Part shown: piece by piece, positions 4,879-51,805 of the stretch
Position numbering within the stretch: position 1 is the stretch's first letter
Layout: every line of letters starts with the position of its first letter
Assembly: GCA_030265395.1 (NCBI GenBank)
Contig: JARFYF010000036.1
Location: 27,244,397-27,308,396 of the forward strand
DNA: 64,000 nt
Origin: Rhina ancylostomus
Lineage: Eukaryota
Direction: 5' to 3'
Notes under the pieces: model-generated
The model's input: the letters and a program-made list of their open reading frames with translations, nothing else
What the model was told of the DNA's origin: nothing
Database searches by the model: none
Translations under genes and position numbers: made by a program

Positions 4879-4972
4879 AGACACAAGAGTCTGCAGATGC
4901 TGGAATCTGGAGCAAAAAATAAATGGCTGGAAGAACTCAGTCAGTCAAGAAGCAGTTGTGGAGGCAAAGGAT
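4879..4972 (-). mobile_element. Penelope-derived short repeat (3' terminal fragment)
   Basis: gacacaagagtctgcagatgctggaatctggagc...ggaagaactcag is the reverse complement of the tail ending the elements at 12141, 30430 and 43572. Confidence 0.7.
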
Positions 4973-6603: not shown

Positions 6604-6856
6604 TATTTAAGGGGAATTTGAAGGGGAACGACTTCACTCAGAGGGTGGTGCGAGTGTGGAATGAGCTGCCAGTGGAAGTGGTGGATCTGGGTTCAATTGT
6701 AACACTTCAGAGAAGTTTGGATAGGTACATGAATGAGAGAGGTATGGAGGGCTATGGTCTGGGTGCAGGTAAATGGGACTAGGCAGAAAACAAGGCTGGC
6801 ATGGACTAGATTGGCCGAAGGGCCTGTTTTTGTGCTGTAGTGCTCTATGACTCTAT
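6604..6856 (+). mobile_element. CR1-like LINE 3' end
   Basis: ttcactcagagggtggtgcgagtgtggaatgagctgcca (FTQRVVRVWNELP) and tail ggccgaagggcctgt...ctctatgactcta. Confidence 0.85.
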
Positions 6857-9220: not shown

Positions 9221-11685
9221 CAGTAGTGAAATGCATTCTTTCGGTAACAGTTCATGGTGCCAGTAGCATCTTTGCCATTGTAGCAATCCAAAATGTAGCA
9301 CATAGGAGCAGCTCAGGGCATTTCCCTTTTAAGAGATGCATGTTAACTTTAAACAGTGGCAACCATTTTTGGATGCCTGGCTGCATGCAGCAATTGAGCT
9401 AATCAGTAGGCCACATAATGAGTGGGAGTTAATTGCGCATCACAATATAACCAATAAAGCCATTTGCACACAGCAAGTGCAAAAAACAATAAGAAAGAAG
9501 CCTAAATTTTAACCAGGGCACACAGACACTCTTTGGCTCTTCAAAATATCAAAAGAGGACCTTTTCCCCTCACCTCAGAGGGCAGATGAGACCTTAGTTT
9601 ATGCCTTACAATAAATAGGGCACCACCAAAAGTCCATAGGTTTTCACCAGAATATTGACTACATTTTTTGAGCTTGCGTGCCACTTGAGCCCACAACAAT
9701 CTGATAGAGGGGCAGAGATTGAAGCATAGCTAACACCAAAATAAATAAATTAATAAGTATTCCTGCAGGAGAGTTGAGAGGTTTCCTGACTGACATTTCT
9801 GCCTTAATCTACACTAGCATATAATTTTTAGTATGAAAGAGGCTGTTTGATCCACCACACTTCGAGACTAGTCCTCTAAAATAGCAACCTGTAGAGAGCT
9901 CTTTGTCCCAGATAGCATCTTTAGGTCCTTAAAAGTTTGCGAGATTTTATTTGTGCTCTAGATTGTAAATTGGAATACCAAAACCAAAAACAGAAGTAGA
10001 ATCCACAATAGATTTTAAAGGGACCAGCATAAAAAAGAAGTTAAAATGGTATTGCGGCACTGGGATTATATAAAGAGCTTTTTTAGAGAGCTCGTGGTGA
10101 AATAATGGATCAAGTGGCCTCTTTCTGTCCAGTGAAAAATTCCCTGATGGTGATAGTTCAGGAGGTAATGTTGGGCAAGATTCCAGGGGGATCAATTGGA
10201 ATCGGTATGTTTCAGCAGATAGAGATACAACAACACTTCCTAAGAGCAGCACCAACAATTCAATGGTCAGTTAGCACTCTTTGCCCAGATTATGTGCATT
10301 ATTCTTGGGTTTGATGCTATAATTCTCTGACTCAGAGACCAAAGCATTACCAATGGACTGAGGCTGAAATATTTTATAAATGAATGCTGAGTCCTGATAA
10401 ACATGTAAGTAGTTTCTACGGAAATGCCATTCTTCACTGTAACTATTCATATAAATATTGTGTCAAATAATGGATACTGCTGTGAGTCTTATTGCTGCAA
10501 TTCAGCTGAGAGCTTTTGACACGCTCTCTTAAAATTGATGGCAGTCAGCAGAAACAGAAGATCGATTATAGTTGCCTCAGTGCCCTCTGGTATTTTATAT
10601 GGTATGTATAGAACATCTTTTCCATTTTATTGCTGATATCACATTTACTTTTGTCACTTTGCAACTGTTTGCAGAATAGCAGCTGTTAGCTCCACAAGCC
10701 AACTTTGGGAATTCTTCTAATACCCTGGACAAGTCAACATTTTTATTTAGCAGTTCAGTTCTCAATAGTTTACACTTAACTGTTAGCTCTGAAGCAAAAC
10801 TGCAACTGTTGTTCTGATGAGCTTTCCAATGAAACGCAGCCAAGTCCGGAGGTGCCGAGCTGCTCTCCGGCCTGATCTGCTTTATTCCCACTCATTCATA
10901 TTTAAATTGATTGGACTGGATGAATGGTTTTCCTGTGTACATTTCACATCATTACAAAGCTACAGCTGGACGTGAAATATCCGTTTACCATTGTGAGGTT
11001 GTATTTCATCCAATTAATGACATTGAAATGATAGAACATAATGATAACCCCAATAAATTATCCTTTCTTCTTTGCAAATGACTTGCAAGGTTTAAGCAAT
11101 CAAATAAATTCTCAAAACAGTCAAGCTGAAAGTTTTTGAAGCAACATTGCTATCCTCATTTGTTAATGTTTTATGACATAAATCATGTGCCATCACAGTT
11201 TTGCTGATGGACTTAACTGTGATGTTCACGTGAATATTTTTTTTCCAGTGACTCTCCTTATCTGTGAATGTAGGGTCAATGGTTTGGAAAATCTGTTCTG
11301 AGTCCAAAAATTAATGAATGCAAATGATACAGGCTTTTTTTCTATTGAGTCTTACATAGATACTTTGCTCATACTCAACATTTGCAGAGAGTTGCAATCA
11401 AGTTTCCCATTACCTTGGAGCAAGAGTCTTATTTGGCTTGAGAAATGAAGGGGGGTGGTGGTGTGGCAAAGTGGGATGAGTTTCTGGTAATCATCACAAT
11501 ACAGGTAGGCACCTATGTAACCCATGACATTAAGGATATGCATGCATCTCCTGCAGCTGGCAAATTTAAATTTGTGACAAAAATAGCAATTTATTTCATA
11601 TCTTCAACACAGAAAATTGTTGAGGGAGCATGGAGACAGGAACCACTTGAGGGCAATGGATCAGCTGAGGAAGCTGCAGTGATCA

Positions 11686-12140: not shown

Positions 12141-12186
12141 GCAGGGTCCTGAAGAAGGGTCCTGACCCGAAACATTAACCACCTGC
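12141..12186 (+). ncRNA. Minimal type-I hammerhead ribozyme-like motif at the head of a Penelope-derived short repeat (element continues to ~12268)
   Basis: CTGAAGA (12149-55), extra A, GGGT-cctg-ACCC stem II, GAAA (12169-72), then CATT; flanks GCAGGGTC and AACCACCTGC can form stem I. Activity not demonstrated. Confidence 0.55.
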
Positions 12187-12494
12187 TTTTCTCCACAGAT
12201 TCTGCCTGGGCTGCTGAGTTCCTCGAGCATCATCGTGTTTCTCATCCAGATTCGGCATCTGCAGTCCTGCAAGGAATTCTCTTGCAGTATTCCTAGTGTG
12301 CCTTATTAGTGCCTGTGCAGTGGTAGCTAGATTTCCTTATTTCTGTGATCCATCTCTATTGTGATAAAGATCAACAATCTGTTTGTCTTCCTTATTTCTT
12401 GCTAACATGTCCTCTTGTATATTTTGCAAAATAATCTAAATCTGGTTTTGAACCCTTTGCTTATGAGAACAATTTGCCTCAAAATGTTCCATCT

Positions 12495-16726: not shown

Positions 16727-16951
16727 GACCCCAACACTCCCCCTGACGCTAACCCTAACCCCCGCCCGCTAATGGGACGGCCCTGGACCCTAACCCTAAC
16801 CCTCGACGGGGAGCAGGGAAGCCCTAGGCCCTGCCCCTCACCCTAACCCTAACCCTAACCTCCGCCTGGGAGTAGGGCGGCTCTAGACCCCAACACTCAC
16901 TCTAACTCTAACCCTAATCCCCCACCCGCTAATATGACAGCCCTGGACCCT
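16727..16951. repeat. Satellite/minisatellite built from telomeric CCCTAA units and GC-rich spacers (~159-bp higher-order unit), next to a gap
   Basis: gaccccaacactc...ccgctaat..gac.gccctggaccct at 16727 and again at 16886; internal (CCCTAA)2-3 runs. Confidence 0.85.
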
Positions 16952-20061: not shown

Positions 20062-20235
20062 AAGATTTCTTTATTAGTCCTGTGTATATTGAAACACACA
20101 GTCAAATGCATCTTTGCGTAGAGTCTTCTGGGCGTAGCTACGGCACCAACATAGCATGGCCTCAAGTTCCTAACCCGTACGTCTTTGGAATGTGGGAGGA
20201 AACTGGAGCATCTGGAGGAAACACACACAGTCACT
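20062..20235 (-). mobile_element. V-SINE-like fragment
   Basis: gtacgtctttggaatgtgggaggaaactggagca is the reverse complement of the V-domain seen at 28184 and 50154. Confidence 0.7.
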
Positions 20236-20250
20236 TGCTGACTGAAATAT

Positions 20251-20415
20251 AAACTACTGGAAGAACTCAGTGGGTCAAGTAGAATCAGTGGAGGCAAAGG
20301 GATGGTTGACCCAAAACGTTGACTATCCCTTTGTCTCTGCAGATGCTGCTTGTCCCAGAGTTCTTCCAGCAGTTTGTTACTTCATATTCCAGCATCTGCA
20401 ATCTCTTGTGTCTCC
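20251..20415. mobile_element. Fold-back (inverted-arm) Penelope-derived short element
   Basis: 20251-20310 is an imperfect reverse complement of 20318-20375; the right arm is the same tail as at 12141 and 30430. Confidence 0.75.
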
Positions 20416-23847: not shown

Positions 23848-23975
23848 CAGGAGAATGCAGATGCTGGAATATGGAGCAACAAACAACCTGCTGGAGGAAC
23901 TCGCAGGTTGATCGGCATCTGCGGCGGGAAAGGGTTTCAACCTGAAACATTGACAATTCCTTTCCTCCCACAGGT
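23848..23975. mobile_element. Penelope-derived short repeat with partial inverted arms and the 3' half of the hammerhead motif
   Basis: tgcagatgctggaat...ggaggaactc (reversed tail) joined to agggtttcaacctgaaacattgacaattcc. Confidence 0.65.
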
Positions 23976-29199: not shown

Positions 29200-30530
29200 G
29201 AGGGGATAACAGGCAAATGGAACCAGGTGGGGGAGTAGGTTGGCTCAGAGGCCAGTGATAGGTGAAGCCGGATGGGGAAGGGATGCTCTTCCCTGTCTGG
29301 CTCTCTGCTGCCCTGCCCCAGGCCCCTGATGCTCAATAGGGGCCTTTGTTCTCTCCCGTCCAACTGATTTCCCCTCACTCCAATCTCCTTCCTGAGACCT
29401 CTCTTCCCTCTCCCTCCTCTGACCCCATGCCTCACCCTAGCTCCAATCTCTGTCACGTCTTTACCATGACTCCTGACCTCCCTATCTCCAACACATGAGC
29501 ACTCAGTCCTCAGTCCCCTATGCTTGCACCTCAGTGAGTTCTGAGCCCAACACAATGTTGAGCTATTCTTCCATGGCCTCTCGGCCTATTTCTTCAGCCA
29601 GGAATCCCCACTACCCCCTCCCCCAATTGACGACTCTTCATCATGTCTCCAGCAGTCTCCTTCCACTTGGATTCCCCCTTCTGGCCTCTTACCCTCTCTT
29701 GATCTTTTCATTTCCAATTGCCAAAGTGGAATTGATGACCTTGACTTTTCCAGTCTCCTCATGTACTCCAAACTTACCCTTCCGAACGTGCTGCACTCAG
29801 CTCACTTCAGACCAGTCCCAACACTGTCATCAAACCTGCGGACAAGGAGGACTGCCTTTGTGGTCTGAGACACTGACTTCTAGAGGCCAGGCTCTAAGCT
29901 TTCTGACAGCTCCTCCTAACTCTCTCTCATCGATGTCCCCACTGACGAGCACTAGGGCACCGTATCCTGGACCAATACAGATCTCATCACATCAAGAGAT
30001 CTCCACTGCCTCCCACCTCAGAATGCCTCAACCCTTTTTTGTGAAGCACTTGTGCTCTGTCCATAACAGCCAGCTTGAACTGGTTGTGTGTTATTTTAAC
30101 TCTTCTTCCCTCTCCCACACTGACCTGTCTGTCCTCGGCCTTCTCCATTGCTATGGAGAGGCCAAGTGTAAATTGGAAGAGCAACATTTCATACTCTACA
30201 ACCTAATGGCATGAACATTGAATTTTCAAATTTCACGTAACTCCCCAGTACTCTCTCCTCATCCACACTCACCTGTCTACCTAGTTTTCTTCTCTGTTTA
30301 TCCCTCTCATCCCCTCCCTTCACCTGTTTCCAACTGCCCATCATCCCTTCCCCACCTGGCTCCACCTACCAGAGTCTATCCCTGCTCCCTTGGTACTGCT
30401 GTATACTGGCAACCTTTCCTCTTCCCTCTCTGTCCTGATCAGTATCTCGACCTAAAAAGTCAACTTAAACCTTTTGCCTCCACAGATGTTGATTGATCTG
30501 CTGAGTTCTTTCAGCATTCTGCTTTTGTTC
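29200..30530 (+). mobile_element. Penelope-like element, internally deleted, with an inverted 5' segment
   Basis: TVIKPADK (~29823-29846) and HTDLSVLGLLHCYGEAKCKLEEQHFI (~30116-30193, GIY-YIG C-terminus); 29255-29285 is an inverted copy of 30341-30372; ends in a degenerate hammerhead and tail at ~30430-30530. Confidence 0.8.
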
Positions 30531-33947: not shown

Positions 33948-34001
33948 TCAAAATGAACTCAAATATTCCAGTGCCACATCATAGCAGAATTTGTATTGCT
34001 C
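33948..34001 (-). CDS. PTPRT: PTPRT terminal coding exon (EQYKFCYDVALEYLSSF*)
   Basis: Acceptor ccttctag|; 17 codons then TGA at 33950-33948. Confidence 0.95.
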   Translation of the reverse strand, partial: EQYKFCYDVALEYLSSF

Positions 34002-38779: not shown

Positions 38780-39125
38780 TTACTCTTCTCCCCCCTCCCA
38801 TTAGGCAGAAAATACAAAAGCCTGGAAGTACATACCACCAGGCTCAAGGACAGCTTCTATCTTGCTGTTATAAGACTATTGAACAGTTCCCTTGTACGAT
38901 AAAATGGACTCTTGACCTCACAATCTACCTCGTTATGGCCTTGCACCTTATTGTCTACCTGCACTGCACTTTCTCTGCAGCTGTAACACTTCTCTGCATT
39001 CTGTTATTGTTTTCCCTTGTACTATCTCAATGCACTGTTGTAATGAAATGATCTGTATGGACAGCATGTAAAACAAGTTTTTCCACAGTACCTCAGTACG
39101 TGTGACAATAATAAACCAATTTACC
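38780..39125 (+). mobile_element. Rex1/Babar-like LINE 3' end (same family as 1414-2495)
   Basis: Close reverse complement of 1414-1755 (accaccaggctcaaggacagcttctatc...gacctcacaatctacctc...gtacctcagtac). Confidence 0.85.
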
Positions 39126-39277
39126 ATCTGACATGAGAAGAAACTGAGAGACACAAATTACTTGTAGATGAAGCAGTTATAAAGTTAGAGACTATTGTAA
39201 CAAGACATTTTGGTTAGGCTTTTGTAATTAGGGTGTGTGATCTAAAGGCCTTTGAAAACAGGTGAGATTTAAAAACG

Positions 39278-41014: not shown

Positions 41015-41789
41015 CTGCAAATGAAAGTTACAAATGAGGATGCTGAGCAATTGTTAATTTTCCACTTTTCATTTATATTTTAGACAAAATGGTTACATCC
41101 TTCTGCTAATTGTCTCTCTCATTTTCCTAAACAGCTTTGATTTCTGGCTACCATGTGTGGTAACATCATTTGTGTGTTCAAAAAAATTTCCTCTGGTTCT
41201 GTAGTTGCATGAAAATTTAAAAATAAAGGAACTTCTTGTGAACTCTTTAACACAGTTGACTAATAATGATTAGAGCAACTTATCTCCCATTAATATATAC
41301 AGGTTGAGTGCTATTAGGTTCTATAATAATACTATTTCTGCACAGGCGCATAGATGTTGCTAGCTAAGAGAATGAGTTTGGTTGCTTATATGTAATTTGG
41401 ATTTGAACAGATTTTAATATGTCATCAGATCAGTTTTAAAAATCTCACAGCACTTTCCCAACATTTCAGTTCATTCTAATGGAATATTAACAGTTAATTG
41501 CCTCCATATCTTATTGGTTATTGCAATCACCTGCTTTTCTTCAGCTAAACATAAAGGAAAACTGTTGTTTTCTGCATCTCACAGTTCCGGTAATTTATTT
41601 TTCTCTCAACTGTTTTCATTCATCTCCCTGTGTATATACTTACCTAAAAAGCTGAGATTAATAAGACTTGTTAGCCTCTCATAGCCTTTGTGTCACCTGG
41701 GCAATCTTGGTTTCCACGTTATTACAGATATTCCCATTGTTCTCACCAATGCCTCTCCTCCCTGCAGCTAAAACTCTTTTGATCACTTG

Positions 41790-41875
41790 TTCTGATGAAA
41801 GGTCATTGTTCTGAAATAACTCTGTTTCTTTCGCCATAGGTACTGCCTCACCTGTTGAGTACCTCTTGCATTTTA
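41790..41875 (+). mobile_element. Penelope-derived repeat with decayed hammerhead core
   Basis: tCTGATGAaaggtcattgttctGAAAtaac followed by the family tail. Confidence 0.55.
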
Positions 41876-43571
41876 ATTTTATAAAAGAAAACTTTGTGGA
41901 TATTAATTTCTGTTATATAAAAATATTGAGTTGAGAAAAAATATTGAATACCTCTACACAAAATTAGATTTTATTTATATTTCTAAAGTGCTCGCAGTGT
42001 TTTACATGAAAAAATCCTATTTATTTGAACTTATCCCTGCAAATTATCAATCCTACTTGAATTTAAAAGTTCAGTGCTTCATCATAATCATCCTTCTTGA
42101 CAATCTATTCCAGCTGCTGATCAACCTCTGTGTAAAGAAATGTTTGTCCTAAAAATACTCTTTCCAGTCTAGAAGCTGACATTTGTCATTCTTCCTAGGC
42201 AGACTTGTACAAGGTTTATCTTAATTATTTTCTGATGTATCTTGTACATTTCTTCAAGATCTCCTCCGATGTCCTTTTTAGTAACTAATGTACTTAAGGT
42301 TATTCCCTCTAATATTGTGAATTAGCTCTACTTAGCACTGCTCTATGATAATGCCCCAGGGAAGGAAAATTGATTTGCAGTTTAAAATGCAGTTAAAGAG
42401 CTCCAGTGATGTGTAAAAATTGACAACAAAATCATCACAGGAATGTAGAACGCTAAAACAGCAATGCTATTTCAGAGAAGATCTTTGAAGGTGATAGATT
42501 TCAGTGCGCAACTTTTGCAAATATTAAGTAAGATTAGCAACGTTTTAGTATTAGTAAAATTGGAATAAACCATATAAATGACTTCTACAATATACTTCGT
42601 ATTTAACAAATCTCACATCCTGTACTAATGCTTTACTAACTACAGATAGCCATGAATATAGTATATCACATTCATTTCTCAGCATCATATCTTAACAATG
42701 GCCAATATTCCATTCACTACAGTAATTGTAATTCACTTATCACAAGCTCAATATATCAGTTTTATAACCTAAATTTGTCAAATTGCTTCTCATATTTGTG
42801 TCATCATGCACACTCTGATTCATATTGCAACTCTCACTGCAGCTCGCTGTGACCAATGGACTTTTTTATTTCTCTTCTGGCACTTGGAGTCAATGCCTTT
42901 GAACATCCCTCTCTGAATGGCTTCCAGCTGCAAACAGCACAGCCATCTTGGTTCTTAACCTTCTTGTGGCATCAGCTCTTACTTCCGCAGAGTCACCCGT
43001 CGTCACTATGCAGTTGTCCCTATGCATACCCTTGATCACCTTCCCAGAGGAGAAGGGCTGCCAATTTCTCATTCATCATAGTCACTTTGTTTGACATTAT
43101 AGCCATTGTTCAAGTATGGCCATATCTGTGAGCTGGTTGCCAATGGATTCCACCTGAGTAGTGGTCTTCTTGGGTGGGGACAAATCCACCTCACAGCCTG
43201 AGTGACTCCTGGATATCATCACTGCCCAATGTTGCAATTCTTTTAAATGTACAGTCCCTCAACTCAAGTGACTCAATCCAATTAATGCCCATCACTACAA
43301 TTGGTAGCTGAACCCATCTGTCTCCACTGACATTCAGACAGTCTAGCTCTACCAGAACCTGGAGAATTCTCCTGCTTAGATGCCCAACACCCAGATTACT
43401 TTTCTGCAAAAAAAGTGCTTGAGATATATTTGGGGCAGACCTTGTCCAGTGGTGAAACCAGTCTGCCGCAACATTGATACCTATAGTGATAATGGTGTCT
43501 TCAGTTGATAAGTGGGCTATAAATATATTGCTGAGAAGTCACACTGTGAATTCCTTTAACATGCTCTCCAA

Positions 43572-43690
43572 TTCTGATGCAGGGTTTTGACCTGAAACAT
43601 CGAGAATTACAAATGCTGCTCGACCCATTGAGTTCCTCCAGCAGATTGTTTATTGCTCCAAATTCCAGCATCTGCAGTCTCTTTTGTATC
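43572..43690 (+). mobile_element. Penelope-derived repeat with hammerhead-like head
   Basis: CTGATGC-a-GGGT-tttg-ACCT-GAAAcatcg, then gagttcctccagca...ccagcatctgcagtctc. Confidence 0.7.
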
Positions 43691-44802
43691 TGTGTAACTG
43701 TGTATCTCTAAAAATGTTGGTTTAAATGGTCCCATCAGAACCTTTACAATATTCTTACAGAAGCTATCATCTGTGGTCAGTGATTCTGTTAGGCTTACTT
43801 ACATATTGTATGTTTTTAGTCCTAGCGCTAGTACAGCTACATTACTCTGTTCTCAGTCCTCTCCCCAAACCACAACAGTATATTTGGCTATCATCATTGG
43901 ATCTCCAAACTGTTCCATGCATATAGCAAACTGTTATGAGCATTTATACTTTTCCAGCTCACTAACATTTCTGTCACATCCACTGTCTTCCATCAGTACC
44001 ACGCAGATGCAAATACTGATTAAGAATCTTACTAACACCCATGAGTACAGCATTTATGGAGCTGCATCTATAGAAATAAGGACTGGAAGATATCAGTATC
44101 TAACCACACAGGAGTCCACTGCTCAGAGGTCTGAATAAATGTTCTGGTAATGAGATTATGTGCAGCCTGATCATTGAATTGTGTGGTTTTAACACAATCC
44201 TGAGGGATTTTAACGTATCTAATAATCTTCAATTCTATTTGGTTTGTTTATTTCCATCATATGTTGTTTGAACATAATCTGGTAAGTGCAAATACACAAC
44301 CTTCAGTCTTTTTCAACTCACCACATCCTCAGAAACAGGAGGAGATGGGGCAGGTATTCACCCAGAACACTCTCATCTTCGACGATAGTTCCCCCAAATC
44401 TACATTGCATTTTGGCTCATTGCTAATACACATCCATGTTTGAAATATTGTTTTTTGTTTGTAATGCACAATTATAATAATACTGCATTCATAATAATAA
44501 TACATCAAAGCCTATTTAAATTCTATGATACACAAAATGCAATGACTTTTTATTCAGTTCAGAATACCATCTCATATAAGCACCCAAATATGAGGCAGGT
44601 TATGGCTAAAACCACTTTAGCTTTCGCTTATTAGGATATTTTACAAACTTCTATTTCATACCTGATAATGTGTGGGTGATTTTATCCCACACAAATCTAT
44701 TGTTTTGGAGGTAACCAGTCAGCTTCAATTATAAAAATACCATTGATTCACTTATGGCATTGGATATACTTCATTTATTCCACACATTCCTTATTTTAAA
44801 TT

Positions 44803-45081: not shown

Positions 45082-45828
45082 NNNNNNNNNNNNNNNNNNN
45101 NNNNNNNNNNNNNNNNNNNNNNNNNNNNNNNNNNNNNNNNNNNNNNNNNNNNNNNNNNNNNNNNNNNNNNNNNNNNNNNNNNNNNNNNNNNNNNNNNNNN
45201 NNNNNNNNNNNNNNNNNNNNNNNNNNNNNNNNNNNNNNNNNNNNNNNNNNNNNNNNNNNNNNNNNNNNNNNNNNNNNNNNNNNNNNNNNNNNNNNNNNNN
45301 NNNNNNNNNNNNNNNNNNNNNNNNNNNNNNNNNNNNNNNNNNNNNNNNNNNNNNNNNNNNNNNNNNNNNNNNNNNNNNNNNNNNNNNNNNNNNNNNNNNN
45401 NNNNNNNNNNNNNNNNNNNNNNNNNNNNNNNNNNNNNNNNNNNNNNNNNNNNNNNNNNNNNNNNNNNNNNNNNNNNNNNNNNNNNNNNNNNNNNNNNNNN
45501 NNNNNNNNNNNNNNNNNNNNNNNNNNNNNNNNNNNNNNNNNNNNNNNNNNNNNNNNNNNNNNNNNNNNNNNNNNNNNNNNNNNNNNNNNNNNNNNNNNNN
45601 NNNNNNNNNNNNNNNNNNNNNNNNNNNNNNNNNNNNNNNNNNNNNNNNNNNNNNNNNNNNNNNNNNNNNNNNNNNNNNNNNNNNNNNNNNNNNNNNNNNN
45701 NNNNNNNNNNNNNNNNNNNNNNNNNNNNNNNNNNNNNNNNNNNNNNNNNNNNNNNNNNNNNNNNNNNNNNNNNNNNNNNNNNNNNNNNNNNNNNNNNNNN
45801 NNNNNGTTTCAAGTTGAGACTGAGCAGA

Positions 45829-45958
45829 AGTCCTGATGTCGGGCTTCAACCCAAAATGTTGACTATCTATTTGCTTCCACAGGTACTACCTGACCTGCTG
45901 AGTTCTTCCACCAGTTTTATTTTGCTTCACATTACAGCATTTGCAGTCTCTTGTGTCT
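45829..45958 (+). mobile_element. Penelope-derived repeat with hammerhead-like head
   Basis: AGTC-CTGATGT-c-GGG-cttcaa-CCC-aaaatgtt-GACT followed by the family tail. Confidence 0.65.
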
Positions 45959-50589: not shown

Positions 50590-50988
50590 AATGTAGGAGA
50601 TTGAGCGGTGACCTGACAGAGGTATATAGGATCATGAGGGGCATAGACAGGGTGAAAGCACATTGTCTTTTTCACCAGGAGGGGGTGCTTAAAAACAAGA
50701 AGGCATAGGTTTAAGATTAGAGTCAAGAGATTTAAAAGGGATATCAGGGCAGCTTCTTTATGCAAAGGGTGGTGCTTATTTGGAATGAGCTGCCAGAAAG
50801 AGTGGTTGAGGCGGGCACATTAGCAACATTTAAAAGCCATCTAGATAAGTGCATGGATAGGCGAGGTTTAGAGGGCTATGGGCCAAATGTGGGCAGATGG
50901 GACTATACTAACTCACAGGGCAACGCAGTCAGCATTGCTGAGTTGGGCTGAAGGGCCTGTTTCCATGCTGTGTGAGTCTATGACTCTA
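50590..50988 (+). mobile_element. CR1 LINE 3' end
   Basis: RRLSGDLTEVYRIMRGIDRV, QRVVLIWNELPERVVEAG; tail gaagggcctgtttccatgctg...tctatgactcta. Confidence 0.9.
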
Positions 50989-51218
50989 AGTACATGCTTC
51001 TTATTGAATCAAAATATAATGAAATTCAGGGGCACTTAAAGAGATTTGGTTTTGCTTTCATTTCATACTTTTTATTACCTGCCTTAATAATAATTGTTAA
51101 AAGAGTGGTGTTTATTAGTGCGAACAGTGTAATAATGATTCCCAATAATCAAGTAACAAAACTAATCACAGTGTATGCTAAAGGAGTCAATAAAATGCAC
51201 ACTTAGGCTGGGACATAC

Positions 51219-51623: not shown

Positions 51624-51624
<1 letters not shown>

Positions 51625-51805
51625 CAGATGCTGGAAGCTTGACATAATCACAGGAGATTCTGGAAACACTCAGCAAGTCAGCATCATCTGTAGAAAGATA
51701 AACAGTGTTAACATTTCAGGTCAAAGAACTTTCAACTTTATTTCTCTTTCCACAGGTGTGACAGATGTGCTGAGCATTTGTAACATTTTATGTTTTTATT
51801 TCAGC
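51624..51805. mobile_element. Fold-back Penelope-derived short element
   Basis: gcagatgctggaa...aacactcagca...gttaacatttcaggtc (reversed gacctgaaatgttaac), then ttccacagg...gctgagcattt. Confidence 0.6.

Follow-up and report, generated by a model that had tools for sequence, protein, structure and literature searches.

A motif resembling a hammerhead ribozyme lies at positions 12141-12186 of a 64,000-nucleotide stretch of contig JARFYF010000036.1 from Rhina ancylostomus (the window, meaning that stretch at its full length). The locus raises the questions of what element brought the motif there, whether it can still cut, and what decides where its many relatives begin. Our answer, to which we give a probability of about 0.68, is that it heads a mutated, probably dead 123-base end-repeat (pLTR) copy of a coding Penelope-like element (PLE), which would have arisen by reverse transcription that started internally and ran off an uncut transcript at its 5′ end.

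An abundant family of truncated end repeats

The letters of the motif, both core boxes, the extra A and stem II (12149-12172) are as an earlier note on this DNA had described them. Aligned to the family profile consensus over 124 columns, the repeat copy containing them shows 9 mismatches and 1 gap (92% identity; Table 1), and its 3′ end falls within an optional tail. No target-site duplication was found around 12146..12268, the longest word common to both flanks being 5 nt.

The same note had extended stem I by a GCAG/CTGC helix. This part did not hold, as GCAG (12141-12144) is flanking DNA and the element begins at 12146. Nor can the helix, as an extended stem or a micro-inversion, be told from chance: among 30 comparable truncated copies, 9 had an extra helix of at least 4 nt.

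Folding stability of the 46-mer was unremarkable on its own (z -0.66). The significance of the motif comes from the family: one family 33-mer had 4,783 exact matches in the genome and its reversed control had none. In a search of the same genome, the best 40 of 1,937 candidates were 89-100% identical. Eight 100-kb blocks with 705 kb of called bases gave 118 profile matches and the window gave 10, in agreement with the earlier count of about 10 fragments. At about one fragment per 6 kb, the genome would hold a few hundred thousand, with inverted arms counted separately.

Table 1. Coordinates of the window copy, its parts and other family fragments in the window.
Feature	Position	Strand	Remarks
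Truncated pLTR copy of a PLE, apparently of Neptune/Nematis type	12146..12268	+	family positions 147-270; 5′-truncated
Decayed minimal type-I hammerhead	12146..12179	+	G>A changes: 12174, 12177
Hammerhead stem I, 5′ strand	12146-12148	+	
Hammerhead core	12149-12156	+	CTGAAGA 12149-12155, extra A 12156
Hammerhead stem II	12157-12168	+	GGGT 12157-12160 / ACCC 12165-12168
GAAA box	12169-12172	+	followed by CATT|AAC
Predicted cut	between 12176 and 12177	+	
Flank outside the element	12141..12145	+	G12145 at the family's A(+1) position, the putative transcription start
Block kept across subfamilies, up to the first preferred 3′ end	12190..12245	+	mean column conservation 0.83; presumed RT start region
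Older relative: remnant of the endonuclease C terminus running on into 3′ UTR and a decayed hammerhead	30038..30518	+	tblastn E 0.001 at 30038-30151; profile match 30334-30518
Head-to-head pLTR fragment pair, older subfamily	20210..20415	.	two profile matches
Head-to-head pLTR fragment pair, older subfamily	23853..23973	.	profile
Family fragment without the hammerhead part	4879..4965	-	profile
Older family fragment, decayed hammerhead	41781..41871	+	profile
Older family fragment whose variant core has C after G8	43564..43691	+	profile
Older family fragment, also starting at the A(+1) position	45827..45958	+	profile
Older family fragment, intronic, on the phosphatase gene's strand	51624..51723	-	profile

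The family hammerhead and its decay in the window

Minimal hammerheads (min-HHRs) in the pLTRs of metazoan PLEs were described by Cervera and de la Peña (2014; PMC4209133). Well-kept copies of the present family read GTC-CTGAAGA-A-GGGT-CCTG-ACCC-GAAA-CG-TT-GAC, in agreement with the minimal consensus given in the passages of that paper considered here. The features in common are the CUGANGAH core, an extra base before G10.1, the G10.1-C11.1 pair, GAAA-CG-UH, the lack of helix III, a 3-bp stem I (GUC/GAC in this family) and the occurrence mostly as solo motifs from truncated elements. The attribution of the motif to a Penelope-derived dispersed repeat with a minimal type-I hammerhead was thus borne out. 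In the family, CG followed by UU or UC forms the palindromic 15.2-16.2 pairs plus NUH, from which the window copy departs by the A at 12174.

The earlier note had made its reading depend on a conserved core and on stem covariation at the family level. The first was found and the second was thin. Conservation averaged 0.91 across the 10 core columns versus 0.64 across the 11 that follow stem I (78 of 128 matches, those covering the motif). Stem II, with its G10.1-C11.1 closure and the extra base ahead, was nearly invariant, its pairs being kept in 74-87% of copies; the change of C11.1 to T is CpG decay. Pair 2.1-1.1 was C-G in 19 copies and U-A in 18 (Fisher p 0.012), a contrast that is confounded by CpG decay and probably reflects a single subfamily event.

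Both CpGs of the motif were heavily deaminated, and the strict motif was intact in only 1 of 51 young copies (L214), the pattern to be expected if copies decay once inserted. The window copy kept both core boxes and stem II; the boxes were intact in 17 of the 51 young copies. The two G>A changes noted earlier are real against family copies and affect G16.2 (12174) and G1.1 (12177). The helix III self-duplex was -4.1 kcal/mol in a better-kept copy (L010) versus +1.3 in the window copy, the hammerhead fold was -7.0 versus -4.8, and the stem I closing pair of the window copy is a C.A mismatch. Because the helix III palindrome and this closing pair are lost, the copy is probably dead, and its ribozyme is very probably inactive.

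An active or host-exapted ribozyme at this site would be in keeping with the intact boxes and stem II. We regard it as scarcely credible: beyond the two losses just described, the copy has no same-strand partner nearby, its divergence is similar to that of sibling copies, and of the genes found the nearest (a receptor tyrosine phosphatase) is on the opposite strand, its last exon lying about 22 kb short of the copy. As for the family, its parent ribozyme might cut as a dimer or with the help of the element's protein, by analogy with published relatives.

The Rfam covariance models, which had been proposed as a check, gave no hammerhead match for the window motif or for a better-kept copy. Such a miss would be expected where the motif lacks helix III.

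The base after G8 was C (18) or T (6) in 24 of the 78 matches covering the motif, and the next A was 95% conserved (random blocks L106-L185); the window has examples at 43564-43691 and 45827-45958. They appear to belong to two or more older subfamilies, in which the ribozyme either tolerates an inserted base between G8 and A9 or was already crippled while the subfamilies spread. In contrast, all 56 motifs in the text of figure S3 of PMC4209133 keep A9.

A coding parent element

The earlier note had taken the family to be non-autonomous. Longer copies are instead colinear, going upstream, through about 300 nt of 3′ UTR into an ORF with a GIY-YIG endonuclease, a CX4CxxC linker and an RT, and an older window copy keeps a remnant of the endonuclease (Table 1). 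The linker between RT and endonuclease fits CX2-5CxxC (L040, L050, L037), which points to the Neptune or Nematis clade on the criterion in the passages of Craig et al. (2021; PMC8557442) used here.

Homologous proteins come from a skate and a bamboo shark, which fits a cartilaginous fish as the host. A related shark protein with RT and GIY-YIG domains (P0011) was used as a query. Its own Pfam scores were under the curated cut-offs (GIY-YIG, 21.7 of 22.6 bits; RVT_1, 16.4 of 29.6), and Pfam gave no significant family for one endonuclease piece of the element (L047). The search with P0011 gave 95 matches from the best 88 of 50,321 candidates. In five loci (L088, L095, L097, L081, L093), the P0011 ORF lay directly upstream of the family 3′ UTR and hammerhead. 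The same order was found in L292-L296, L299 and L301, that is, in 7 of 13 stretches picked for the ORF. The pLTRs of ORF-linked copies were 78-89% identical to the consensus. None of the 13 ORF-bearing 10-kb stretches held a full-length copy (an ORF between two direct pLTRs, or with a 5′ pLTR), and assembly gaps fall in these repeats. One stretch carried a 4-kb head-to-head pair in which both copies were ORF-bearing and pLTR-terminated (L292:5264-9340).

Given the link to the ORF through the longer copies, the short copies are best read as 5′-truncated products of the coding element, and 12146-12268 is almost certainly a decayed pLTR copy of such a PLE. The short copies could alternatively form a separate non-autonomous family, SINE-like or retrozyme-like, with its own short masters and using the Penelope protein. 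They vastly outnumber the ORF-linked copies, many have fixed ends, and pLTR-derived non-LTR retrozymes, also in one chondrichthyan, are reported in the part of a preprint considered here (bioRxiv 10.64898/2026.07.22.740005). We nevertheless find such a family very unlikely. ORF-linked copies bear the same pLTR, 28 of 70 resolved copies reach upstream of position 100 with scattered ends, and copies starting at A146 (see below) have lost the TATA region that lies upstream of it. Hammerhead-bearing units in tandem array were looked for in the window and not found.

Copies tend to begin at the edge of the ribozyme, with no excess at its predicted cut

Positions are those of the profile consensus, in which A146 lies just before stem I, C3 is position 150 and the predicted cut is 177|178. 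Ends were surveyed in 100 of the 4,783 exact 33-mer matches; the word was chosen downstream of the ribozyme, and the matches came from one 37-Mb stretch of one contig.

The 3′ ends formed two clusters 33 nt apart, with 47 of the 96 resolved ends at 241-251 and 40 at 277-284. They leave an optional tail of the kind that marks the two RT start sites of an Anolis element in the passages of Frangieh et al. (2024; PMC11167929) covered here.

Assembly gaps hid 30 of the 100 5′ ends; a further 28 were upstream of position 100, 1 was at 199 and 41 were in 100-198. Ten of these 41 were at 145-148 (p 4e-6 versus uniform), and 2 were at 176-179. Genome-wide, starts were counted as exact matches with two purines in place of the element's pyrimidines, using patterns that differ in degeneracy and one upstream control position: 129 were found at A146 versus 10 at A140, six bases upstream. 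None of the 30 inspected among the 129 A146 starts continued into the upstream element. Eight of them were flagged as adjoining an inverted arm; inverted 5′ partner arms are present in family copies.

A footprint of cleavage had seemed visible in nine exact head-to-head junctions whose inverted arm ended at the predicted cut, and this candidate failed a non-cut control. There were 44 starts at the predicted cut versus 64 at a matched non-cut GAC (165, 13 nt upstream), and 24 of 30 inspected cut-site starts were inversions joined through GTC/GAC microhomology. For both reasons the cleavage reading was rejected. There is no excess of copy ends at the predicted cut.

In six loci (L305, L316, L320, L321, L325, L333), short pieces copied again from the element's opening 10-15 bases stood between the target duplication and the copy, which suggests that template jumping recurred at the RNA's 5′ end.

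A putative capped transcript start at A146

Several features of the pLTR suggest that A146 is a transcription start. It lies within TCAGTCC, which matches the initiator consensus, and 13 of the 21 copies retaining the upstream region have a TATA-like box at -30 to -32. The base before A146 was G in 59 of 100 rows among the matches listed versus 42.5% expected (hand count including fold-back junctions; p 6e-4). In a second hand count (100 of 756 matches, loci partly overlapping), 20 of the 29 A146 ends with a non-element base carried G, as did 16 of 25 after four recurrent junctions were dropped. The excess is modest. An added G is a trace of cap copying in other retroelements, so an excess of G before A146 would be expected if a cap had been copied. 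Together these observations make it fairly probable that a TATA/initiator promoter in the pLTR starts a capped transcript at A146.

RNA reads of a relative were uninformative. Raw reads from three runs of one study, in fragmented libraries of another species, cover the pLTR, and neither their starts nor their ends accumulated at A146 or the cut; among the best-supported ones shown, loose ends at A146/G147 were heterogeneous. Several of the older subfamilies have branch-point-like words and no clear TATA upstream of A146.

Alternatively, the copy would still be a dead, truncated PLE end, but the 5′ hotspot would reflect a 3′ splice site, or RT stalling at the border of a hammerhead that is folded or bound by protein. 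The pyrimidine tract and CAG, followed by T, make a good splice acceptor and are kept across subfamilies whose upstream regions otherwise differ. The D. virilis Penelope intron ends at the 5′ end of helix I according to the part of PMC4209133 considered, and introns in the 5′ UTR of pLTRs have precedent in passages of PMC2377424 and PMC8557442. Against splicing, the copies retain the AG that it would take out, the 30 inspected of the 129 copies have no common upstream exon, and in L314 the bases upstream are a 12-nt target duplication. The base in excess before A146 is G, unlike the A or C that exon ends favour at this place. We consider a splice site or a stall rather unlikely.

If A146 is the cap site, the hammerhead would be the first 35 nt of the RNA, and the uncut RNA would presumably be the template for copies. 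On this model, the pLTR promoter would start a capped RNA at A146, and the element's protein would nick the target and prime RT at 247 or 280. On the 5′-most pLTR, RT would run off after 100-135 nt and leave copies like 12146-12268. Priming on both strands would produce head-to-head pairs with short microhomology at the joins. RNA that had been cut would leave no excess trace, which agrees with the passages of PMC11167929 covered here.

We also suggest, as a speculative extension that we think rather unlikely as a whole, that the capped transcript starts at the hammerhead's first base, that self-cleavage strips a 32-nt capped leader and that the ribozyme acts as a protein-triggered decapping switch limiting the element. 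A switch of this kind is proposed because the Anolis relative cuts only with its protein bound. Uncut RNA alone would be copied to DNA, and run-off of a strong-stop-like kind would account for the copies of 100-135 nt, hundreds of thousands in number. Subfamilies with C or U between G8 and A9 would represent a variant of the core that is not yet listed.

The role of the hammerhead in endonuclease-bearing PLEs is called unclear in the part of PMC8557442 considered, and cutting was dispensable for insertion in vitro in that of PMC11167929. The thousands of genomic copies form an in vivo record that agrees with the in vitro result, with ends accumulating at the 5′ edge of the ribozyme and not at its cut. 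If this edge is the cap site, the ribozyme's job would narrow to the capped leader. The window copy is of no importance in itself; it is the family that is useful for the role of PLE hammerheads.

Comparison with known elements

The family resembles Neptune and Nematis as described in the text of PMC8557442 used here: RT is followed by a CX2-5CxxC linker and, at the C terminus, a GIY-YIG domain, and heavy 5′ truncation, an inverted 5′ partner, an optional tail of 30-40 bp and a pLTR hammerhead are all present. Cartilaginous fish, the source of our family, are absent from table S1 and the text of figure S3 of PMC4209133, and the parts of that paper covered here report no 5′-end hotspot.

In the corresponding passages of PMC11167929, the Anolis element PAc has two tail-defining RT start sites about 70-100 nt below the hammerhead cut, uses uncut RNA as its main template and primes on both target strands; the window family would share these properties. 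It differs in belonging to the Poseidon clade and in having an ORF that starts inside the hammerhead, where the young subfamily of the window has no ATG.

A promoter inside the pLTR, as proposed here, is described in passages on the Adineta vaga Pen2a pLTR (PMC3846280) and D. virilis Penelope (PMC2377424). A TATA box and an initiator are putatively present in that of Pen2a, as they may be in our family, while that of D. virilis is TATA-less, with a start 46 bp above an intron. In neither passage is transcription said to start at the hammerhead's first base. The non-LTR retrozymes in the portion of the preprint considered (bioRxiv 10.64898/2026.07.22.740005) are also pLTR-derived with a type-I hammerhead, but they are tandem repeats with one ribozyme per unit, unlike our solo or head-to-head copies.

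No statement was found in the literature covered of a bulge between G8 and A9, of PLE hammerheads in sharks or of a start site at a hammerhead. The present analysis contributes the reading of the pLTR as a promoter, the excess of G and a negative control for the cut site.

Other features of the window

The 3′ exons of the receptor-type tyrosine phosphatase, with two catalytic domains, occupy 33950-62600 on the minus strand, the last exon being near 34000. By one searched exon and by motifs, it is nearest to the mu/T/kappa/U group. A CTGATGA...GAAACG motif at 10814-10845 has hammerhead-core-like spacing, lacks stem II and a family match, and is probably due to chance. A GC-rich tandem repeat at 16727-16951 (period 59, 2.3 copies) contains CCCTAA telomere-like words. 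Two other dispersed repeat families, each with copies 68-85% identical, are probably SINE-like; one is found at 492-765, 6632-6855 and 50710-50989, and the other at 1411-1756 and 38783-39127.
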